Of a DNA stretch of 53,359 nt, positions 3,962 to 50,354 are shown piece by piece. The stretch is taken from contig CAZQWS010000006.1 of assembly GCA_964597355.1 (NCBI GenBank), positions 1-53,359 of the forward strand. The letters run 5' to 3'. The notes under the pieces are model-generated. The model did no database searches, was not told the origin of the DNA, and saw only the letters and a list, made by a program, of their open reading frames with translations. The position numbers and the translations under genes were made by a program. The DNA comes from an uncultured Bdellovibrionales bacterium. GTDB taxonomy: Bacteria; Patescibacteriota; Minisyncoccia; Moranbacterales; UBA1568. Within the stretch, counting starts at the first letter, position 1. Each line of letters begins with the position of its first letter.

Positions 3962-4651
3962 CTATTTCTGGCTCAAGACTTTGATTGGAAATACCACGAC
4001 AGCATTCCAGATGCGGTGGAAGCGGCTCGGCTGCTTCAACAAACGCCAGAGCCACTCGAGACCACATGAGCGCATCCATTTGGGCGCACGTGGGATAGCG
4101 CAGGTAAGAAAATCAAAAGCCCCACCGACCCCCATTACCAATCTGAAATTCGTATGGCGTGTTCGAAAGGTTTCGAGATAGAGCTCCTGAAGAGGAGCTC
4201 CGTAATTACAGAACAAAATGGCCGCTTGTGAACTTTGTGGTTCACGGAGTGAGAGCATTTCTATTTGAAGTTTCGGATAGCACTCGAGAAGCGCTGTTTT
4301 TATTGTTTCTGGACTACTCAAACCTTGTTCATAGAGCGCGAGGGCCACTCCATAGCCTTTAGCTTCAGCCAATTTCAAAATTTCATGGAGCAGATCAGCG
4401 CCTGGAAAACGATCAACTAGCTTCTCACCTACAAGCCAAAAAGGGAGGTTAATACCGACTCCGTCAGCAATCCGTAAATCGGCTTTTTTGAGCGCCTCAC
4501 GAAAATTGGGATGTGAATGGGCTAAGAGAAGAAACTCTGGATTGACGGTTGCGATACGGTGGAAACCACCCTGAAGAAGCCACTCGTCTATTGCTTGGAG
4601 GATGGCGCTTCGGGAGAGATTATCGATAGTGACGCCAAAAGTCTGTATCAT
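3962..4651 (-). CDS. WecB/TagA/CpsF family glycosyltransferase (GT26)
   Basis: IATVNPE, ADLRIADG, RFPGADL, MGVGGAFDF, RAPKWMRSCGLEWLWRL. Confidence 0.92.
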   Translation of the reverse strand: MIQTFGVTIDNLSRSAILQAIDEWLLQGGFHRIATVNPEFLLLAHSHPNFREALKKADLRIADGVGINLPFWLVGEKLVDRFPGADLLHEILKLAEAKGYGVALALYEQGLSSPETIKTALLECYPKLQIEMLSLREPQSSQAAILFCNYGAPLQELYLETFRTRHTNFRLVMGVGGAFDFLTCAIPRAPKWMRSCGLEWLWRLLKQPSRFHRIWNAVVVFPIKVLSQK

Positions 4652-4679
4652 GTATTGAGTATCTAGTATCCAGTATACT
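4645..4679. repeat. Heptamer tandem array (GTAT-N3) x5
   Basis: GTATCAT GTATTGA GTATCTA GTATCCA GTATACT, exact period 7, filling the thpR-tagA junction. Confidence 0.8.
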
Positions 4680-5227
4680 TACCCTTCAAGCGGAAATTCA
4701 GCGATCGGAACATAGGTCCGTTTGCCTTCAACACTGGTACTTTCAAATAATGTGATCGAAGAAACAGGTTCTACAAAGTTTACGTTTTTATCAAACTTTG
4801 GTTTCTCGCTCAGGGCTTCAAACTTGCCACGACGGATTTTTCCAAGCGTAATATGCGGACGAAAACTTTTTTTCTCAGGGACGAGATAACCAAGTTCACG
4901 ATCAAGGTTTTGTCGCAGTTTGAGAAGCATAGGATCATCCTCGCCATAGAGAAAAATAGCCGTAGGATGTGCGCTATCGGGAAAATAACCAATCCGATTG
5001 AAGCGAAGTTCGAAGGGAAGCACTCCTGTTACGGAGGCTTCGATTGCGGGCAGGATTTCATCGAGATTTTCCTCCGCCACAAACCCAAGGAAAAGCACCG
5101 TCACATGGAGGTTTTCCTTGCGAGTCGGGATAATCGGCCAATCTTTGAATGCCTCAATTTCTCGGCTCAAGCGCTTGGCCAAGGGAGAGGAGAGGCTGAT
5201 CCCGACAAAAAGACGTTTCGTTTGCAT
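4679..5227 (-). CDS. thpR: RNA 2',3'-cyclic phosphodiesterase (2H phosphoesterase, 2'-5' RNA ligase family)
   Basis: N-terminal RLFVGI and two HxT motifs (LHVTV, PHITL). Confidence 0.88.
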   Translation of the reverse strand: MQTKRLFVGISLSSPLAKRLSREIEAFKDWPIIPTRKENLHVTVLFLGFVAEENLDEILPAIEASVTGVLPFELRFNRIGYFPDSAHPTAIFLYGEDDPMLLKLRQNLDRELGYLVPEKKSFRPHITLGKIRRGKFEALSEKPKFDKNVNFVEPVSSITLFESTSVEGKRTYVPIAEFPLEG

Positions 5228-18460: not shown

Positions 18461-18669
18461 GCGAATTGAATCCTCACGCTTTTGGGTTACCTAAGATTCT
18501 AACTCGGAAAGTATCCACTTCAAAAACTTTTTTCTCATGCGTTATATTTTTACATAAATTTATAATTCTGTCAATAGTAACGTTACTGGTATCTCTTCAA
18601 ATGTGTTATCTAATTGAGTTAAACCATTGGAAAAGCTACAATGTGAAGGTATACCAACTGATACATTTT

Positions 18670-19956
18670 ATGGAGAATACTACGAAACAAACCGTGGCAG
18701 TGATCGGGCTTGGCTATGTCGGACTGCCTTTGGCGTTACGCGCTAGTGAACGCGGCTACCGAGTTATTGGTTTTGATACGAGTGAAAAGAAAATCGCCCT
18801 TCTCAAAGAAAAGAAGTCACCTATTGCTGATGAAAAACTTATTGAGCAAGTCAAACAATTTGAATTCACCCCAACCACCGATCCGAGCGCTCTCAAGGAA
18901 GCTGACATCATCCTCATTTGTGTCCCTACCCCAGTAGACGAAACCTATTACCCTGATCTTACGCCCGTACGCAACGCTGCCACTCTCTCGGCCAAGAATT
19001 TGAAGAAAGGTGCCCTCGTTGTCCTGGAATCGACTGTCAATCCTGGAGTCTCGGAAGAAGTAATCCAACCCATTCTCGAAGCCGAAGGTCACACTCTCGG
19101 AACCGATGTCTATCTCGCCCATTGTCCAGAACGTATCAACCCCGGTGACCCTAAATGGAATGTCTCGAATATTCCCCGCGTGGTAGGCGCAGCGGACGCC
19201 ACCGGCCTCGAACGTGCACTCAATTTCTATCGTTCGATCGTCGATGGCGAAATCCGTCCGATGAAATCCATCCGCGAAGCTGAAGCCGTCAAAATTGTCG
19301 AGAACTCTTTCCGTGATATCAACATCGCTTTCGTCAATGAACTGGCGAGGTCATTTGATGTGCTCGGCATCGATACCAAAGACGTCATTGAAGGCGCGGC
19401 TACCAAGCCTTTCGCTTTCATGCCGCATTTCCCTTCTTGCGGCGTCGGTGGACACTGTATCCCAGTGGATCCGTATTACCTCATCGAACGGGCCAAACAA
19501 TCTGGTTTTGATCACCGGTTCCTCAAGATCGCCCGCGAAATCAACAACAGCATGCCGCTCTATACGGTCGAGCTCCTTCAGGATGCTTTGAATGAAAAGA
19601 AGAAAGCCTTGAATGGCACCGTGGTTGGCGTCCTCGGTCTCGCCTACAAAGCCAATATCGATGACTTGCGTGAATCCCCCGCCCTGCGTATCGTCAAAGC
19701 TCTCAAGGATCACAAGGCCGACGTAATCACCTATGATCCGCATGTGAGTAGCCGTTCAACCGAAGCAAGTCTCGAAGCTTTGCTCGAAAAAGCTGACGCG
19801 ATTATCCTCGCTACTGACCACCGTGTCTTCAAGGAAACACTCACTCCCGAGCTCTTGAAACAGTATGAGATAGATGTCCTCGTGGATGGGAAAAACGCAC
19901 TCGATAAAACCCTCTTCCAAAACGCTGGTATTCTCTACAAAGGTATCGGCCGTTAG
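18670..19956 (+). CDS. Nucleotide-sugar dehydrogenase, UDP-HexNAc 6-dehydrogenase (WecC/WbpA-like)
   Basis: GLGYVG, ICVPTP, ESTVNPG, CPERINPG, KIVENSFR, GVGGHCIPVDP, DLRESPA. Start moved to ATG 18670. Confidence 0.93.
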   Translation: MENTTKQTVAVIGLGYVGLPLALRASERGYRVIGFDTSEKKIALLKEKKSPIADEKLIEQVKQFEFTPTTDPSALKEADIILICVPTPVDETYYPDLTPVRNAATLSAKNLKKGALVVLESTVNPGVSEEVIQPILEAEGHTLGTDVYLAHCPERINPGDPKWNVSNIPRVVGAADATGLERALNFYRSIVDGEIRPMKSIREAEAVKIVENSFRDINIAFVNELARSFDVLGIDTKDVIEGAATKPFAFMPHFPSCGVGGHCIPVDPYYLIERAKQSGFDHRFLKIAREINNSMPLYTVELLQDALNEKKKALNGTVVGVLGLAYKANIDDLRESPALRIVKALKDHKADVITYDPHVSSRSTEASLEALLEKADAIILATDHRVFKETLTPELLKQYEIDVLVDGKNALDKTLFQNAGILYKGIGR

Positions 19957-19962
19957 GATCAA

Positions 19963-20054
19963 GTATTTTGTATAGAGTATGTCGTATCTAGCATGCTTGT
20001 AGAATTATGAATCCCCTACATAATACGCAATACTGTATACTCGATACATCAAGC
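19963..20054. repeat. Pair of complementary heptamer arrays, (GTAT-N3)x4-5 then (N3-ATAC)x4-5
   Basis: GTAT at 19963, 19970, 19977, 19984 (GCAT 19991); ATAC at 20023, 20030, 20037, 20044; exact period 7. Confidence 0.8.
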
Positions 20055-20056
20055 AT

Positions 20057-20347
20057 ATGATCTTTGGCCTCATAAAATTAGTAGTATGGTTCCTTGGGGT
20101 GGCGACACTCGCCTATATTGCTTTGCCCTATTTTGGTTATGAAGTAAACTGGAACTATTGGAATGAAAGTAAGGCTACCTGTGAAGAACGCTTGCGATCC
20201 TGCCAGCGAGATCTCATCAAATCTGGTCTCGAGGGTGCCAAAGAAAAATGTGATTTCAAATGTGTAGATACGAAATCGCTTATCCAAAAGAAAGCTAAGA
20301 GTCCCGTCAATGCTTTATCCTCCCCAACTGATGATAGTAGTCAATAA
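20057..20347 (+). CDS. Small membrane-anchored protein with four Cys
   Basis: Hydrophobic N-terminus, then C-x6-C and C-x3-C; in line with the glycan operon. Confidence 0.7.
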   Translation: MIFGLIKLVVWFLGVATLAYIALPYFGYEVNWNYWNESKATCEERLRSCQRDLIKSGLEGAKEKCDFKCVDTKSLIQKKAKSPVNALSSPTDDSSQ

Positions 20348-22467: not shown

Positions 22468-24417
22468 ATGGTTGAAACATTTCTTCTTTTTACCACTCTC
22501 GCACTGACTTTTTTCCTCCCCGGCTGGCTTTTCTTACACGTATTCTGGAAAAACAAATTCTCTTTCCTTGAAGAGAGTCTTTATTCTTTCGCCCTTGGTC
22601 TCACGCTTGTAAACGCACTAGCACTTATTCTTGATCGGCTCAACGTACCACTTTCTTTTACTGTCCTCGCTTCCTCTTTGGTACTGATACATATAGCGCT
22701 TGGTGGTATTCTCTGGTACCGAAATCGAATATCAACAATCAACAATCAACAATCAAATATTCTTGGAAATTGGAAATTGGAAATTGGAAATTCACGAATG
22801 TGGAGCCTTCTCCTCCTCATGCTCGTGATTACTATCGGCATCAAAGCCTACTACCTCGTGCCAGCTGGACTCCCTACTGCGACTGACATGGGCCATCATA
22901 TGTATTGGGCCAAGTATATTGCCGATAAACAAGAGCTCCCTGTTTACCAAAAAATCGAAGTAACGACTGATACCACCACTGGCGCCACGACGGTTACCCC
23001 TCCAGGCCATATCGCTGACTTTATCATTGGCGAGCATATCCCCTTTGGAGTTATTTCCATTCTCTCGGGACTTTCCCTCATTAGTTCTTTCCCCGTACTC
23101 GTCCTTTTGCTTATCAATCTCCTGTCGCTCCTTGGCATGCTCGCCCTCACCCTCCGTCTCGGACAAAGCCTTTGGAGTGAACAAGAACGCTCTCTCTTTG
23201 TACTCGGCACCTTTCTTTTTCTTGGACCACTCTTTGCCCTCGCTTCTCCACAGGCCAAATTTGTTTCGGGTGGTGTCGTGGGCAATCTCCTCGGGAATTT
23301 TTTCATCCCGCTTATTCTTCTCGCTTTCTATCTTGGTCTCCGTGAAAAACGCGGGGGCTTCATCGCGCTCGGCACCCTCCTCATGGGCACCCTCGCCTAC
23401 ACGCATCACCTCTCTACGCTCGTTCTTGGTTTTATCCTCATTGGTATTGCTCTCATGGCCTTACTCACAGTATGGAGAGATTTTCTTCCTACTGTGAAAA
23501 CATGGTTACTCACTTGCTTCAAGCCTTCCGTAGGCATCGTCGTTCTCGGCATAGCGCTCTTTCTTCTTTTTATCGCCGTCCCGAGCTATTTGGACCGTGA
23601 AGCCATCGATTCAGCTATCGGGAGCCCGGTCAAAACCACGCGCACTGGCCTTTCGTATTTCCAAGTCACCAATTCTCTCGGTATTGGGAAAAGCGCTCTC
23701 GCCATTGCTGGGTTGGTCCTTCTCGTTATCACCTGGAAGCGGTTTGAAAAACAGGATCCACTCGCTTGGGGACTCCTCTTTGGTTGGGCCGTGATGCTCT
23801 CACTCATGGCGATGAAGCCGCACTGGCTTTTCCTTGATATTCCGTCCAACCGGGTGGGCAGTTACCTCATTTATCCTGCTGGCCTTCTCGCTGGCTATGC
23901 CTTTATGGTCATGGCCAATGCCTTGGCCACGGCCAAAAAGAAAACCCTGGCCACTCTCCTCGGCAGTCTTCTCCTCGGTGTTATTGTCGCCAATGGTGTC
24001 TTTGAAAATGGAGCTGCTCTCAGCACGGTGAACAAAGCTCGCGAAGCTCAGGAAGTTTTCACCGCTTCGAAGTATCTCAGTGAAAAAACGAGCGAAACAG
24101 AAATGATCCTCAAGGACCACAATTATCTCGCCGCCGATGCCTGGATGAAGCTCTTCTTCGTCCGCGATTATGGTTATCCTCTCTCACGTGGTCTCTTCTC
24201 TCGCTACGAAGAAACCGGCAGCCGCCGCGAGCGTTGCACCCTCGTCATGATAGCGAGTCCCAATAGCACCGAAGCCAAGGAGTGTTTCGACGGTACTGGT
24301 ACCAACTACATCGTCGTCAATCCTACCTTTGACGCCGTCCAATTTGAAAAGTCAGGCGGCTTCGCCAAAGTCTACGCCAGCGACCACGTGGTGGTGTTCA
24401 AGCGCTTGCAAGAATAA
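22468..24417 (+). CDS. Polytopic membrane protein, probable GT-C-fold glycosyltransferase
   Basis: Many TMs, luminal-loop motif PTATDMGHHMYW, YTHHLS, soluble C-terminal domain. Family inferred from topology and context. Confidence 0.65.
   Translation: MVETFLLFTTLALTFFLPGWLFLHVFWKNKFSFLEESLYSFALGLTLVNALALILDRLNVPLSFTVLASSLVLIHIALGGILWYRNRISTINNQQSNILGNWKLEIGNSRMWSLLLLMLVITIGIKAYYLVPAGLPTATDMGHHMYWAKYIADKQELPVYQKIEVTTDTTTGATTVTPPGHIADFIIGEHIPFGVISILSGLSLISSFPVLVLLLINLLSLLGMLALTLRLGQSLWSEQERSLFVLGTFLFLGPLFALASPQAKFVSGGVVGNLLGNFFIPLILLAFYLGLREKRGGFIALGTLLMGTLAYTHHLSTLVLGFILIGIALMALLTVWRDFLPTVKTWLLTCFKPSVGIVVLGIALFLLFIAVPSYLDREAIDSAIGSPVKTTRTGLSYFQVTNSLGIGKSALAIAGLVLLVITWKRFEKQDPLAWGLLFGWAVMLSLMAMKPHWLFLDIPSNRVGSYLIYPAGLLAGYAFMVMANALATAKKKTLATLLGSLLLGVIVANGVFENGAALSTVNKAREAQEVFTASKYLSEKTSETEMILKDHNYLAADAWMKLFFVRDYGYPLSRGLFSRYEETGSRRERCTLVMIASPNSTEAKECFDGTGTNYIVVNPTFDAVQFEKSGGFAKVYASDHVVVFKRLQE
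22731..22790. repeat. In-frame heptamer arrays (ATCAACA)x3-4 and (TTGGAAA)x4 inside the CDS
   Basis: ATCAACA at 22731, 22738, 22745 (ATCAAAT 22752); TTGGAAA at 22763, 22770, 22777, 22784; encodes STINNQQSNILGNWKLEIGN. Confidence 0.85.
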
Positions 24418-45311: not shown

Positions 45312-46622
45312 TTATACACCGACACCATAATAAGTAAAGCCTGCTGCTTCTGCTTCGGATCGCTCGAGGACATTCCGGCCATCGTAAATCACGTCTCCCT
45401 TCATATATTTCTTAAGATCTTTGTGTTCCACTACTCGGAATTCATCCCATTCGGTGCAGATAAGTAAAATATCAGCTCCCTTGAGCACATCTACTGCTTT
45501 TTTACCGTACACGAGACTTTTGTGCTGGAGTGCCTTCTTAGTATTTTCTACAGCAATCGGATCAAAGGCTTTTACCTTACAACCCTCCTCGAGAAAAAGT
45601 TTAATATTTTCGATAGCGGCTGCTTCTCGAATATCATCAGTACGTGGTTTAAAGGCGAGACCCCAGACAGCTATAGTTTTGTCTTTGAGCTTTTCCCCAA
45701 AGATCTCTTTCATTTTCACGAATGGTTTAATACGCTGTGATTGATTCACCTTATCTACGGTCTCAATGATATGGAAATGAGAATTATACTCATGACCTGT
45801 TTCAATAAAGGCCTTCACGTCCTTGGGAAAACATGATCCGCCATAGCCAATACCAGCATAAAGAAATCGCGATCCGATACGATTGTCGTAGCCCAAACCT
45901 TTGGCTACTTCCTTCACATTGCCACCAGCCACATCACAGAAGTTGGCCACCTCATTCATAAAGGTGATCTTCATCGCGAGGAAAGCATTAGCTGCGTACT
46001 TGATAATTTCGGCGCTTCTGACATCGGTAAACATGATGGGACGGCCAGAGCGAGCCAAGGGTCGATAAATCTGTTCCATGAGCTTCCTGGCTTTGACTGA
46101 TTTGGTCCCCACCACTACCCGATCTGGATTGAGGAAGTCTTTCACCGCTGCCCCTTCACGGAGAAATTCTGGGTTAGACACCACTTCAAACGGATGTTTC
46201 CCTTTGGAGGCTTTTTTAATAAGCTCCTCCACCTTTTCGGCCGTCCCTACTGGCACGGTTGATTTATCCACGAACAGTTTGAAACCGTTCAAGTGTTTAC
46301 CAAACGTTTCAGCGGCCGCAAACACATACTGGAGATCGGCTTGCCCCGTCATTTTGTCTTCTGGGGTACCGACTGCCATAAACACCACTTCGGATTCCTG
46401 GATCGCATGCTTCAAGTCAGTGGTAAAAGAAAGTCTTCCTTCTTTGACATTGCGCTCGACAATTTCCTCGAGTCCAATTTCATAAATTGGAATTACTCCC
46501 TTTTTGAGTTTCCCAATTTTGTCCTTGTCGATATCGGCACAAATCACCTCATGCCCGATTTCTGCCATACAAGCACCCGATACCAGTCCCACATATCCCG
46601 TCCCGAGAAAAGTGACTTTCAT
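45312..46622 (-). CDS. ugd: UDP-glucose 6-dehydrogenase
   Basis: GTGYVG, AVGTP, KSTVPVG, SNPEFLREG, IKYAANAF, GYGGSCFPKD, AFKPRTDDIRE. Start moved to ATG 46622. Confidence 0.94.
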   Translation of the reverse strand: MKVTFLGTGYVGLVSGACMAEIGHEVICADIDKDKIGKLKKGVIPIYEIGLEEIVERNVKEGRLSFTTDLKHAIQESEVVFMAVGTPEDKMTGQADLQYVFAAAETFGKHLNGFKLFVDKSTVPVGTAEKVEELIKKASKGKHPFEVVSNPEFLREGAAVKDFLNPDRVVVGTKSVKARKLMEQIYRPLARSGRPIMFTDVRSAEIIKYAANAFLAMKITFMNEVANFCDVAGGNVKEVAKGLGYDNRIGSRFLYAGIGYGGSCFPKDVKAFIETGHEYNSHFHIIETVDKVNQSQRIKPFVKMKEIFGEKLKDKTIAVWGLAFKPRTDDIREAAAIENIKLFLEEGCKVKAFDPIAVENTKKALQHKSLVYGKKAVDVLKGADILLICTEWDEFRVVEHKDLKKYMKGDVIYDGRNVLERSEAEAAGFTYYGVGV

Positions 46623-46623
46623 A

Positions 46624-46665
46624 AGACAATCAACAGTCAACAATTAGCAATTAACAAAAGCAACT
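46624..46665. repeat. Heptamer array downstream of the four-helix-bundle gene
   Basis: AGACAAT CAACAGT CAACAAT TAGCAAT TAACAAA AGCAACT, period 7. Confidence 0.8.
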
Positions 46666-46670
46666 CTTCC

Positions 46671-47030
46671 TTAACTTTGTAAGATTTTTTCTTTTATCGT
46701 TCCGATTCTATTCCAAAGCATTGCCCCAACCTCATCTGACAGTTTCATTAGTTTTTTGTAATCTCCCTCTTTAATGTATTTTTCACGAGCACAAAAGAAA
46801 AGTAAATACTGCGTTTCCTTCAGAGAACCATATGAAATCTGGAGGAAATTCTTAAGCTCCTTATTGCCAACACGAGCAAACCCCTCAATATAATTTAAAA
46901 TAATCGAAAGCGAAGCTCGTCTTATTTGCGAAGTAAGACCGTAAATTTCTTCTTTTGGGAAAGCCTTCGTAACAGCATAGACCCCTTTAGCAAGCTCATC
47001 CATCTTCTCTTTCAAAACATCCTTTGACAT
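46671..47030 (-). CDS. Four helix bundle protein (23S rRNA IVP / bAvd-related family)
   Basis: TKAFPKEEIYGLTSQIRRAS.SI..N..EG..R...FLQISYGSLKE. Confidence 0.92.
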   Translation of the reverse strand: MSKDVLKEKMDELAKGVYAVTKAFPKEEIYGLTSQIRRASLSIILNYIEGFARVGNKELKNFLQISYGSLKETQYLLFFCAREKYIKEGDYKKLMKLSDEVGAMLWNRIGTIKEKILQS

Positions 47031-47033
47031 CTT

Positions 47034-47102
47034 TGCTGATTATTAATTGCTTATCTCCTTCGCTCCCTGTAGTTCGTTAATTGCTGTTTGTTTATTGTTG
47101 TC
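47034..47102. repeat. Two heptamer arrays upstream of the four-helix-bundle gene, complementary to the downstream array
   Basis: TGCTGAT TATTAAT TGCTTAT (47034-47054) and CGTTAAT TGCTGTT TGTTTAT TGTTGTC (47075-47102). Confidence 0.75.
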
Positions 47103-48033
47103 TGATCTCGCGAATATTGTAATTCATCCGATTCCGAACTTGGTAAAAACTCCGGACCGCGATATCCGCCAAGAGACCTGAAATAAAGAGCTGGATACCG
47201 ACCAGCATAAAAAAGATACCAACGAGCGGCCACAAGCGTTCAGAGATAGACTCTCCAAAATACAGTTTTTCTACAGCCATCCATACAAGAATGACTCCTC
47301 CTACGAAGGAAAGAATTACCCCGCTCGCTCCAAAGAGATGAAGTGGTCGGTGAGAATATTTGCGCCAAAACCAAATAGAAATCATGTCGACAAAGCCCTT
47401 GAACCCACGTTTCCAGTTGTATTTGGTCACGCCATGCACTCGTGGATGATGGGACACTTTGACTTCTCCTACCTTGTATCCTTCAAGCTGAAGGATAGCC
47501 GGGATAAACCGGTGCATTTCCCCAAAGAGATCCACATCCTTAAAGCACTCGCGTTTATACGCTTTCAAACTACAGCCTGAGTCATGGATATTGTCATGGA
47601 TAAGGACTTTGCGGAGAAGATTGGCAATACGAGAAGGAATTTTCTTACTCCATGGATCTTGACGTTTGTGGCGCCATCCTGATACGACATCATAGCCTTC
47701 ATCCATTTTGGCCAAGAGAAGAGGGATGTCAGCTGGATCGTTTTGGAGATCGCCATCGAGCGTAATTACCACCTCTCCCTGCGCTGCCTTGAAACCTGCA
47801 TCAAAAGCTGCAGTTTGACCAAAGTTCTTGCGGAAAATGATAAGTTTCAGTGGACTGAGTTTTTTCGCTTCTTCGAGGGTCTTATCGCGCGAACCATCAT
47901 CGATGAAAATAATTTCAAAAGGCCGTCCCAGTTTCTGGACTGCTTCAAGAATTTTGGAATGAAGGAGAGTAACATTCCCCTCTTCATTGTAAAGTGGGAC
48001 CACCACCGAAAGCCAAGGTTTTTCCATATTCAT
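47092..48033 (-). CDS. GT2 undecaprenyl-phosphate glycosyltransferase (ArnC/GtrB-like)
   Basis: VPLYNEE, IDDGSRD, RKNFGQTAA, LDGDLQNDP, SGWR, DSGCSLKAY, GEMHRFIP, two C-terminal TMs. Start taken at ATG 48033 (TACAAT 6 nt upstream). Confidence 0.93.
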   Translation of the reverse strand: MNMEKPWLSVVVPLYNEEGNVTLLHSKILEAVQKLGRPFEIIFIDDGSRDKTLEEAKKLSPLKLIIFRKNFGQTAAFDAGFKAAQGEVVITLDGDLQNDPADIPLLLAKMDEGYDVVSGWRHKRQDPWSKKIPSRIANLLRKVLIHDNIHDSGCSLKAYKRECFKDVDLFGEMHRFIPAILQLEGYKVGEVKVSHHPRVHGVTKYNWKRGFKGFVDMISIWFWRKYSHRPLHLFGASGVILSFVGGVILVWMAVEKLYFGESISERLWPLVGIFFMLVGIQLFISGLLADIAVRSFYQVRNRMNYNIREIRQQ

Positions 48034-48088
48034 ACGACAATTGTACAAGAGAGACTAGGCTTCTGCAATATTCTGATTTGATGCCTTG

Positions 48089-49293: not shown

Positions 49294-49986
49294 ATGCCAG
49301 ACTCTTCTCTTCCCTCCATTTTTATTGCGCTGCCTGCTTACAACGAATCCAAAGTACTCGCTGAGGTCATTCAAGAAATTCGTTCTGCTGGCTACCACAA
49401 TATCGTCATGGTCGACGACGGAAGCAAAGACGATACGTTTGAGATGGGAAAACGGGCTGGCGTAATTGCTCTCCGTCATCGTTTGAATCGAGGCAAAGGC
49501 GCTGCCACCAAAACCGCCATCGAGGCTGCCAAGTTTCTCGGAGCCGATATCATTGTCACCATGGACAGCGATGGCCAGCACAACCCAGAGGATATTGCAC
49601 AACTCATTGAACCCATAAAGAAAGGAGAGGCCGAGGTGGTCCTCGGCACCCGTCTTCTCAATCCCAAGGGTATGCCCTGGTACAAAGTTATTGCTAATAA
49701 GATTGGCAATGTTGTGACTTGGTACTTTTATGGTCTCTATGTTTCTGATAGCCAGTCCGGATTTCGAGCTTATTCACGACGAGCAGCTGAGCTCATCGAC
49801 ACTCGAACCGACCGCTATGAATACGATAGTGAAATCATCCGCGAAATGTATCTTCACAAACTCAAGTACTGTGAAGTCCCGATCGAGGTGCGTTATACTG
49901 AATATTCAATGGGAAAAATTCAAAAACAAGGATTCGTGAACGGTCTCAAGACACTCTACAAAATTATTTGGAATCTCATTTCTTAA
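49294..49986 (+). CDS. GT2 DPM1-like polyprenol-phosphate glycosyltransferase (no TM)
   Basis: LPAYNE, VDDGSKD, NRGKGAA, MDSDGQH, VLGTR, DSQSGFRA. Start moved to ATG 49294. Confidence 0.92.
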   Translation: MPDSSLPSIFIALPAYNESKVLAEVIQEIRSAGYHNIVMVDDGSKDDTFEMGKRAGVIALRHRLNRGKGAATKTAIEAAKFLGADIIVTMDSDGQHNPEDIAQLIEPIKKGEAEVVLGTRLLNPKGMPWYKVIANKIGNVVTWYFYGLYVSDSQSGFRAYSRRAAELIDTRTDRYEYDSEIIREMYLHKLKYCEVPIEVRYTEYSMGKIQKQGFVNGLKTLYKIIWNLIS

Positions 49987-50003
49987 TCACTTTTTATACT
50001 CTT

Positions 50004-50354
50004 ATGCCTGAACTTGCTCTATATCAAATAGTCATCGCTATTATCGCTGGAGTCATGATCTTCCAAGGCCTCCAGAAATTCTTCAAACATCAGGCTGGCC
50101 AAACCATCCTCAAGCTCTCTATCCGTATCATCGTCTGGGGTGGCATGGCTATTATTGTACTGTTCCCAAGTATCACCAACACCCTCGCCAAGCTCATTGG
50201 TATTTCTGACAATATCAACGCTGTCATTCTGACGGGCTTCATCTTTATCTTTCTCATGATTTTCAAACTCCTTTCTACTATTGAACGACTCGAGCAACAA
50301 ATCACCGTGCTTACCCGCAAAGAATCCCTTGAGGGAATCAACCAAAACAAATAA
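50004..50354 (+). CDS. DUF2304-like small membrane protein (usual partner of DPM1-like GT2)
   Basis: Three TMs, W..., LIGI, C-terminal IERLEQQITVLTR; directly follows a TM-less GT2. Start moved to ATG 50004. Confidence 0.8.
   Translation: MPELALYQIVIAIIAGVMIFQGLQKFFKHQAGQTILKLSIRIIVWGGMAIIVLFPSITNTLAKLIGISDNINAVILTGFIFIFLMIFKLLSTIERLEQQITVLTRKESLEGINQNK

Follow-up and report, generated by a model that had tools for sequence, protein, structure and literature searches.

Why does a small gene for a four-helix-bundle protein stand between two enzymes of a glycan gene cluster, and why is it enclosed by arrays of 7-nucleotide (nt) units that are complementary to one another? The question is raised by contig CAZQWS010000006.1, whose 53,359 nt were analyzed as a whole (the window) and which is a genome fragment of 46.8% G+C from the Candidate Phyla Radiation (CPR; Patescibacteria) with its closest named homologues in Candidatus Moranbacteria/Moraniibacteriota. 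The cluster lies on the minus strand, where a family-2 glycosyltransferase gene (GT2) is followed by an open reading frame (ORF) of 119 amino acids (aa) and then by ugd, a gene of the UDP-glucose 6-dehydrogenase family. Our reading, to which we give a probability of about 60%, is that the ORF and its flanking arms are a PF05635 intervening cassette in an mRNA, in which the arms loop out the ORF and the protein recognizes the repeated units as its putative targets. The arms accompany this gene family across several phyla, and comparison with related loci supports the view that the ORF and arms behave as one insertion/deletion unit. The parts of the locus, in the order of transcription, are the following.

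47092..48048, minus strand: GT2, the upstream host gene, a family-2 glycosyltransferase of 313-318 aa (Pfam PF00535, E=1.6e-32)
47073..47105, minus strand: distal upstream arm A1, units (AGA)CAACAAT AAACAAA CAGCAAT TAACGAA, complementary to arm B (inverted repeats I1, 28 nt at 82%, and I2; stem in the minimum-free-energy [MFE] and centroid folds)
47054..47067, minus strand: purine-rich box GGGAGCGAAGGAGA between both upstream arrays (sequence; orthologue comparison)
47031..47053, minus strand: proximal upstream arm A2, TAAGCAATTAATAATCAGCAAAG, abutting the ATG of the four-helix-bundle gene (direct repeat D1, 17 nt at 82%; inverted repeats I4 and I5)
46671..47030, minus strand: four-helix-bundle protein gene, 119 aa, pI 9.4 (PF05635/TIGR02436)
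46623..46658, minus strand: downstream arm B, UUUGUUAAUUGCUAAUUGUUGACUGUUGAUUGUCUU, reverse complement of the upstream units (Tandem Repeats Finder; inverted repeats I1-I6)
45312..46622, minus strand: ugd, the downstream host gene, UDP-glucose 6-dehydrogenase family, 436 aa (Pfam PF03721, PF00984, PF03720)

Few small hypothetical genes are as common in CPR bacteria, cyanobacteria, and Bacteroidota as those of PF05635, a family that has been a function-unknown entry since the early 1990s. The 119-aa protein belongs to it with a match of 105.4 bits (cutoff, 33.8) over residues 8-106, and it matches TIGR02436 with 102.2 bits (cutoff, 24). An earlier sequence-only reading of this DNA had made the same family assignment and had called the family related to bAvd, the accessory protein of diversity-generating retroelements (DGRs); both statements hold, the similarity to the bAvd Pfam family being weaker (36 bits, below cutoff) and the match to the Avd equivalog NF033474 reaching only 34 bits against a cutoff of 80. 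The nearest solved relatives, with five chains each, are PDB 2GSC (E=2e-13), which is XCC0516 of Xanthomonas, and 2RLD; a Xanthomonas family member has a homopentameric, toroidal crystal structure (cited in PMC4990558). Only helical-bundle families match the 119-aa protein, and no catalytic domain was found in it. Its identity to orthologues tracks the divergence of GT2 and Ugd, and this divergence in step with the neighboring enzymes argues for vertical inheritance and a functional protein.

The sequence-only reading had also described periodic, complementary 7-nt arms around the ORF, and on this point the sequence itself, Tandem Repeats Finder, and a repeat search all agree. The distal upstream array, CAACAATAAACAAACAGCAATTAACGAA (47100..47073, minus strand), starts on the GT2 stop codon, whose TAA (47094..47092) falls within the arm, and its unit type, ARCARWT, is kept across orthologous loci. 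Next comes the purine-rich box, which has a counterpart in most orthologues and which, at 24 nt from the ATG, is too far away for ordinary Shine-Dalgarno action. Arm A2 is a direct copy of part of A1 and is also complementary to arm B (47032-47054 against the downstream array, 18 nt at 78% and 15 nt at 87%), while the downstream array, TTTGTTAATTGCTAATTGTTGACTGTTGATTGTCTT (about 46658..46623), extends to the ugd ATG at 46622. In all, the spacers measure 61 nt upstream of the ORF, in three parts, and 48 nt downstream. Tandem Repeats Finder reports 46626-46657 as period 7 with 4.6 copies and 80% matches, the lag-7 autocorrelation of the downstream arm is 0.71, and the inverted arms 46631-46658 and 47073-47100 are complementary over 28 nt at 82% while lying 414 nt apart. 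With at least three tandem intergenic 7-nt units, these are heptamer simple-sequence repeats (SSRs) of the kind known as short tandemly repeated repetitive (STRR) sequences. Across the 53-kb window, autocorrelation of at least 0.72 occurs in three regions at lag 7, in one at lag 9, and in none at the other lags from 2 to 12. The period-7 description of the arms is accurate, and their match exceeds chance.

As a duplex, the two spacers reach -31.5 kcal/mol, compared with -23.1 ± 3.4 kcal/mol for 1000 dinucleotide shuffles, 11 of which were as good, and the duplex ranks first or second against 2133 other 51-nt windows of the same strand. When a 526-nt RNA spanning the cassette was folded, the MFE and centroid structures both held the long-range stem. 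Much of the pairing potential is compositional, since the upstream side is A/C rich and the downstream side G/U rich; the specific match exceeds composition.

We then asked how far the arrangement extends. Species-representative genomes were scanned with the protein, yielding 80 loci at 40-85% identity (cited below by L numbers) that span many CPR lineages, Chitinophagaceae, Maribacter, filamentous cyanobacteria, Acidobacteriaceae, and others, some titles of metagenome-assembled genomes being evident automatic mislabels. The scored set consisted of 76 PF05635 genes (CPR, Bacteroidota, Cyanobacteria, Acidobacteriota) and 395 other genes of the same loci, and a gene was called armed at an inverted-complement score of at least 12. 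This score was reached by 79% of the PF05635 genes and by 3% of the neighboring genes, with medians of 15.5 and 7.0 (Mann-Whitney p=9e-32), so the survey of homologous genes that the sequence-only reading had proposed as a check came out in favor of the arms. The design of the flanks is near universal: a tandem array stands just before the start codon and a reverse-complement array just past the stop. Array periods among the relatives are 7 or 8 only, and both sides share one period in 30/30 loci. Across the family, cognate arms beat noncognate ones (15.5 against 7.0; permutation p<=2e-4). The units themselves differ among lineages, being CAGTTAA or CAATTAA in the window clade, GTAACAT or TTAACATN in many CPR, AAGTTAT and CGGTTAC in two paralogues of Chitinophagaceae, and GGGAGTC in Nodosilinea and Phormidium. 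Stringently called arrays are about 30-fold denser beside PF05635 genes than elsewhere (44 flanking, against 52 solo in 683 kb), a figure that rests on the estimate that flanks make up about 3% of the sequence.

The pairing seen in the window recurs in these loci as well. In MFE folds of full cassettes, a median of 26.5 long-range pairs joins the 60-nt flanks, and at least 15 such pairs form in 83% of the loci, against 17% when the downstream flank is shuffled (p=2e-12). The claim that the arms are able to pair into a long stem looping out the ORF is in this way upheld as a predicted fold, and with its 28-nt arms at 82% the window cassette has the terminal inverted repeats and long enclosing stem of an intervening sequence (IVS).

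The arms are constrained at the level of sequence, too. At 4-fold degenerate sites the window and its orthologues are saturated, with 27-45% identity, whereas the downstream spacer is 59-90% identical in the same comparisons; the last 30 nt before the ugd ATG match at 30/30 positions in L013, 29/30 in L009, 25/30 in L018, and 24/30 in L017, and in the species with 30/30 and 29/30 the 4-fold sites have an identity of 0.38-0.45. Conservation of this spacer where neutral sites are saturated indicates that the arm sequence itself is under selection. A TAAC core is common to most CPR relatives, at 7- or 8-nt spacing. The period is identical in 119/120 pairs of proteins that share at least 70% identity and is unrelated below 70%. 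Paralogues within one genome differ in their unit, and each unit is kept across genera (L081, L086, and L089).

Heptamer SSRs are over-represented in bacteria (PMC4692102), their copy number varies in Coxiella (PMC4990558), and the window itself has heptamer arrays at 4636-4686, 19955-20057, and 22731-22792 without such a gene, so that arrays born by slippage in spacers might simply have come to lie on either side of this one. Such a coincidence would leave unexplained the roughly 30-fold array density beside PF05635 genes, the contrast of 79% with 3% inverted arms, the same period on both sides in 30/30 loci, and the conservation of arms at saturated neutral divergence; it is effectively refuted by the neighboring-gene control, and we regard it as hardly credible.

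The second line of evidence comes from loci in which the cassette is missing or lies elsewhere. GT2 adjoins ugd, directly or around a cassette, in filled and empty relatives alike, and the order GT2, four-helix-bundle gene, ugd was found in all examined relatives with 67-91% identical four-helix-bundle proteins. A scan with Ugd yielded seven related metagenomic loci with an empty junction, in which ugd follows GT2 after 24-103 nt with no ORF between them; GT2 is 74-91% identical in these loci and Ugd 79-87%. In a neighbor-joining tree of GT2 and Ugd, which was not bootstrapped, these seven empty junctions are scattered among ten filled ones: the empty L099 groups as sister to the window plus L009, L098 (empty) pairs with L016, L100 (empty) with L102, and L103 (empty) with L020. 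If this tree is right, the cassette would have been lost several times independently. What remains at the empty sites varies from almost nothing in L099 to three down-arm-like units in L097 and an array hairpin without an ORF in L100, whose units differ from those of its filled sister L102, so that such hairpins are at most candidate footprints of lost cassettes. Conversely, L019 has a 78%-identical gene, with units like those of the window cassette and an identical 3' end, GTTAATTGTCTT-ATG, between homologues of the GT2_237 and DUF2304 genes of the window, a junction that is empty in the window (49984-50007; TAA, 18 nt, ATG at 50005). The empty GT2-ugd junctions and the relocated cassette of L019 together support the conclusion that the ORF and arms behave as one unit, as the sequence-only reading had supposed. 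No DNA-level excision was seen within the species of the window: in four DNA runs the locus has a single, uninterrupted form, and none of their contigs represents an empty site.

These observations bear on the possibility that the arms act at the DNA level, as subterminal binding sites or ends of a mobile DNA cassette that the protein, by itself or together with an enzyme of the host, moves or maintains, with RNA pairing being incidental; transposons whose subterminal motifs are repeated, and systems of the REP/RAYT type, would be models. Presence or absence at the GT2-ugd junction and the relocation in L019 would fit such a cassette, as would the symmetry of G·U and A·C mismatches in arms whose units are conserved and do not covary, the finding that the unit of a solo array agrees with that of the local cassette in 45% of cases, where 12% would be expected, and the 186 dispersed GGGAATC arrays of Xanthomonas, one of which precedes XCC0516. 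An element of this kind is harder to reconcile with a 119-aa protein in which no catalytic domain was detected, with four deep DNA runs of the species that contain no empty-site variant or joint, and with vertical inheritance at GT2-ugd down to about 65% Ugd identity; moreover, positioning by stop and start codons and the 88% co-directionality described below point to the transcript. We therefore consider action at the DNA level rather unlikely.

The position of the arms relative to the host genes follows one pattern in the window and in its relatives. PF05635 genes are co-directional with both neighbors in 88% of cases, against 72% of controls, and the median spacers are 40 and 42 nt. At 40 loci with identifiable neighbors, the median distance from the start of the upstream arm forward to the end of the stop codon of the upstream gene is 3.5 nt, and that from the end of the downstream arm forward to the downstream ATG is also 3.5 nt; in the window, the corresponding distances are 6 nt for the GT2 stop codon and a few nucleotides for the ugd ATG. 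No promoter-like or terminator-like sites were found in either spacer around the 119-aa ORF, and an Rfam search of 46300-47400 at E<=1 returned zero matches, so the spacers contain no known RNA family. One relative with TTAACAT-type arms (L066, 5857-6438) occupies the spacer of a tRNA operon, flanked on its own strand by tRNA-Leu and tRNA-Phe. No rRNA context was found among seven sampled loci with noncoding flanks that were scanned with Rfam, only tRNAs.

The arrays might also be leader or coupling sequences that give the host genes unstructured, A/C-rich or U/G-rich regions for initiating translation, with no specific link to the four-helix-bundle protein. Shine-Dalgarno-like motifs are rare here (9-14%), arrays abut the start codons at 4651, 20057, and 46622, and the empty junction of L097 retains its three down-arm-like units before ugd, all of which a leader role would accommodate. 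It would not explain why the arms are complementary, why arrays are enriched at one gene family across phyla that include Shine-Dalgarno-using bacteria, or why the Coxiella case described below lies inside an rRNA, and we think it improbable. A related candidate, a split Shine-Dalgarno sequence, with the purine box of the 5' stem base acting on the ugd AUG, was rejected because Shine-Dalgarno-like motifs are rare everywhere (four-helix-bundle genes, 10%; the downstream gene, 5%; others, 14%; the window, 9%). Such motifs were sought at -18..-4 and were present before 9% of window genes and 14% of genes in related loci, values that are only indicative given crude start calls.

The closest known counterpart of the window cassette is an IVS of rRNA. 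ORF-bearing IVSs of 23S rRNA occur in Leptospira, Brucella, and Haemophilus as well as in Coxiella burnetii. In the last of these, an S23p ORF of the PF05635 family lies in helix 45 of 23S rRNA, enclosed by a 28-bp stem of terminal inverted repeats; the ATG is preceded by an AGAAGA box, two or three tandem GACAGAT units, and one degenerate copy, in this order, the heptamer copy number varies by strain, and RNase III cuts the stem at the first repeat (PMC4990558). The window cassette is built of the same parts, arranged alike, with the ORF predicted here to be looped out: upstream of the gene there follow one another GGGAGCGAAGGAGA, about 3.4 heptamers, and the ATG, and the Coxiella unit GACAGAT is close to AACAGAT and AACAATT of the window clade. 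The two differ in the host transcript, which in the window is the GT2-ugd mRNA operon spacer and not helix 45 of rRNA, and in the state of the ORF, which is decaying in Coxiella while the window protein is apparently functional. An insertion site of the 23S rRNA type (helix 9, 25, or 45) does not apply, as the cassette sits between the protein-coding GT2 and ugd and has no Rfam match. These comparisons support the description of the window cassette as an IVS-type four-helix-bundle cassette in a messenger context.

The cassette exactly fills the gap between the stop of GT2 and the start of ugd, two co-directional genes, and has neither a promoter nor a terminator for itself. From the Coxiella precedent and this stop-to-start geometry, we propose that its arms pair within the operon transcript and loop out the ORF, so that the GT2 stop and ugd start would meet at the base of the helix and the insertion may be structurally neutral for the host transcript, as IVSs are in rRNA. 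Ribosomes that terminate on GT2 might then open the stem from its base and make the ugd start accessible, coupling the two genes; alternatively or in addition, the helix is a likely substrate of RNase III, whose cut would release separate messages, by analogy with Coxiella. Because of the periodicity, the conservation of the units, their number, and the pentameric, basic ring known from relatives, we further propose that the periodic units (7-8 nt, about five per arm) are putative recognition sites of the basic protein, one per subunit of a pentamer. Recognition would probably take place on single-stranded nucleic acid and could lead to autoregulation or control of the stem.

Several results weigh against this intervening-cassette proposal or limit its parts. 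Heptamer arrays without a four-helix-bundle gene exist, in the window at 4636-4686, 19955-20057, and 22731-22792 and likewise in other loci. As a whole, the 526-nt RNA folds no more stably than its shuffles (z=0.04), which places the pairing signal in the arms and not in the ORF. Within the orthologous clade (ten orthologues), cognate arms pair no better than noncognate ones (permutation p=0.15), and an apparent two-sided change in L016, considered as base-pair covariation, did not survive the permutation test. Arm mismatches of the G·U and A·C types number 52 and 54; with no excess of G·U, the sense RNA is not singled out as the paired molecule, and symmetry at the DNA level would look identical. 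One metatranscriptome and three RNA-labeled runs gave 2-7 short contigs with no RNA ends or joints seen, and among these few short contigs two from run X26 pass through both arm regions uncut. Arrays hold about five units (medians, 5.5 and 5.1), an estimate that has a detection-window floor near 4. The arms are best described as inverted arrays of one conserved degenerate unit and not as a co-varying helix, and conserved units without covariation or G·U bias make unit recognition as likely as simple pairing.

In a possible but doubtful alternative, the arrays are primarily putative sites for a trans-acting regulator: the pentamer would bind single-stranded units genome-wide, its own copies would be autoregulatory, and the stem would be dispensable. 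About five units per arm and pentameric relatives are in keeping with this, and periods of 7 and 8 that share a TAAC core fit flexible spacing on a single strand. A strand bias also exists (sense-strand TAAC upstream in 38/59 loci and GTTA downstream in 41/63), and the unit of the cassette forms a solo array at 22731-22756, although one shared solo array in the window is not significant alone. The units kept by paralogues across genera in L081, L086, and L089 would be expected if each protein read its own unit, yet co-inheritance of gene and arms would yield the same picture, and the strictly inverted second arm goes unexplained if a single orientation is bound. As models for the inferred binding mode, with one core per subunit, a flexible spacer, and repeats about as numerous as subunits, TRAP and HutP may serve: the TRAP 11-mer reads GAG/UAG every 5 nt and the HutP hexamer reads UAG every 7 nt. 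Neither is related to the PF05635 protein in sequence or fold. The filled junction of L102 (1954-2048) has an upstream array of about 13 heptamers (TGAACAA/TGAGCAG), an example of array growth from which it follows that the unit number can exceed five by far.

Other protein-repeat systems and mobile elements resemble the intervening cassette in part. Repetitive extragenic palindromic (REP) elements are single imperfect palindromes, and the REP-associated tyrosine transposases (RAYTs) are HUH/Y1 transposases. Like RAYTs with their REP doublets forming hairpins (REPINs), the PF05635 gene has inverted copies of a short repeat on its two sides, a repeat that also occurs scattered through intergenic regions, alone or in hairpin pairs, and it is long resident and vertically inherited; unlike them, it encodes a four-helix-bundle protein without a known catalytic motif, and its repeats are tandem 7-8-nt arrays in place of single palindromes. 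Membership in the REP/RAYT family was rejected, since the protein matches helical-bundle families only and no HUH/Y1 transposase, and the resemblance to REPIN-RAYT systems would be one in the way of working, not of family. With bAvd the protein shares a homologous four-helix-bundle fold, a pentameric basic barrel, and a nucleic-acid role in so far as that of bAvd goes, while differing in its score (34 against 80 bits), in the lack of a reverse transcriptase in the gene tables of the loci, and in that no template or variable repeat was noticed. A DGR was accordingly discarded as a candidate: no reverse transcriptase family occurs among the genes within +/-6 kb (no search aimed at template and variable repeats was made). 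So was an integron gene cassette, given that tandem heptamers flank both sides and the gene tables of the locus hold no integrase (an attC model was not run), and so was a component of anti-phage defense, no PADLOC family being matched at E<=0.01. A gene for an AbiEii-family toxin lies directly upstream of GT2 in two relatives (L016, 2124-2924; L180, 1-87).

Heptamer SSRs of other bacteria are the remaining comparison. For Xanthomonas campestris, the catalogue of Rehm et al. (2015) lists 186 GGGAATC arrays, of which 70 form convergent pairs, and comparable arrays were recorded in Nostoc (PMC4692102). In their table, array #15 (4 units, 28 nt) lies 6 nt from bccP/XCC0517 and overlaps the annotated start codon of XCC0516, a gene that appears there only as a "conserved" neighboring gene (PMC4692102). 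These SSR and STRR sequences share with the arms of the window tandem intergenic 7-nt units, often in convergent pairs, with a position conserved among related species and variable copy number. They differ in that the arrays of Xanthomonas (GGGAATC) and Nostoc (GGGGAYT) have been described as repeats or G-quadruplex candidates without an associated protein family, while window-type arrays go with a single gene family, which they enclose in inverted orientation, and their units are A/T rich. Plasmid-borne PF05635 genes occur almost all in heterocystous cyanobacteria, which are the classical STRR organisms, and the plasmid-borne copies of Calothrix and Nostoc punctiforme are flanked by GGGTGTA/TACACCC and CAGGAGT arrays. 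A family-wide link between PF05635 genes and such arrays was not found in the full-text literature searched, from which subscription journals are largely absent, so that a prior description is possible; the rule appears undescribed in the searchable literature.

The arrays that stand apart from the PF05635 gene in the window are of several kinds. At 22731-22792, two adjacent perfect arrays, ATCAACA ×3.7 and TTGGAAA ×4.3, lie in frame within an apparent 649-aa membrane ORF (22468..24417) and end shortly before an in-frame ATG at 22798; the unit of the first (22731-22756) is the cassette arm unit CAATCAA. Neither half of this ORF has a Pfam match, and it may be two genes joined by a stop-free repeat spacer. 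At 19955-20057, inverted heptamer arrays (AGTATnn ... nnATACT) with a short loop enclose no ORF; the array hairpin folds at -24.4 kcal/mol (z=-1.84) and resembles the hairpin of the empty site L100, and its neighbors are a second gene of the UDP-glucose/GDP-mannose dehydrogenase family (18466..19956) and a 96-aa ORF that starts with an ATG (20057) directly at the 3' arm. At 4636-4686 (minus strand), a GTATACT-type heptamer array, with a unit that differs from that of the cassette, bridges the stop of the gene at 4679..5227 and the start of the gene at 3962..4651.

Some of the armed control genes of the family survey are divergent four-helix-bundle genes (L022, 7775-8146; L030, 865-1563), and a few are unrelated. 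Armed genes without similarity to the query were seen in L035 (264-1256), L036 (9159-9608), L042 (968-1627), and L071 (378-797); their families, judged from the translations only, include apparently a NifU-like protein and a small membrane protein. In L035, one unit recurs in three successive spacers with alternating orientation. Directly downstream of ugd, some relatives have a divergent four-helix-bundle gene (L022, 7775-8146; L105, 1200-1445) with units CCAAGAA/TTGGTAA, of a TTGG type that resembles the solo TTGGAAA array of the window, and ugd of L022 has cassettes on both sides.

Heptamer repeats such as STRRs are a long-standing unexplained oddity. Our results invite a wider conjecture, speculative and to our mind doubtful as it stands, that PF05635 pentamers are the protein partner of bacterial heptamer and octamer arrays (STRRs, GGGAATC, and the TAACA arrays of CPR), with one unit per subunit; the gene would travel with its own inverted arrays as a self-contained cassette, able to lodge harmlessly in any transcribed spacer (rRNA helix, tRNA operon, or mRNA operon), and solo arrays and hairpins would be dispersed or relic sites. 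If true, this would be a protein-repeat system that rivals REP-RAYT in scope and acts via RNA or single-stranded nucleic acid. Independently of this conjecture, gene and repeats form one conserved module with a precise stop-to-start geometry, of which the rRNA IVS that named the family is only a special case, and two old puzzles are thereby joined. The predictions that follow are that RNase III cleaves the arm stem, that one pentamer binds about five units, and that translation is coupled at long range over the inserted cistron. The module may account for small genes that interrupt conserved operons unharmed, such as GT2-ugd here, accB-XCC0516 in Xanthomonas, and yebC-like/ruvC-like pairs and a tRNA operon in other CPR, and it carries a warning for annotation, as flanking arrays may be read through as spurious coding sequence. 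For the PF05635 family as a whole, the evidence points to a widespread, little-studied insertion cassette across several bacterial phyla.

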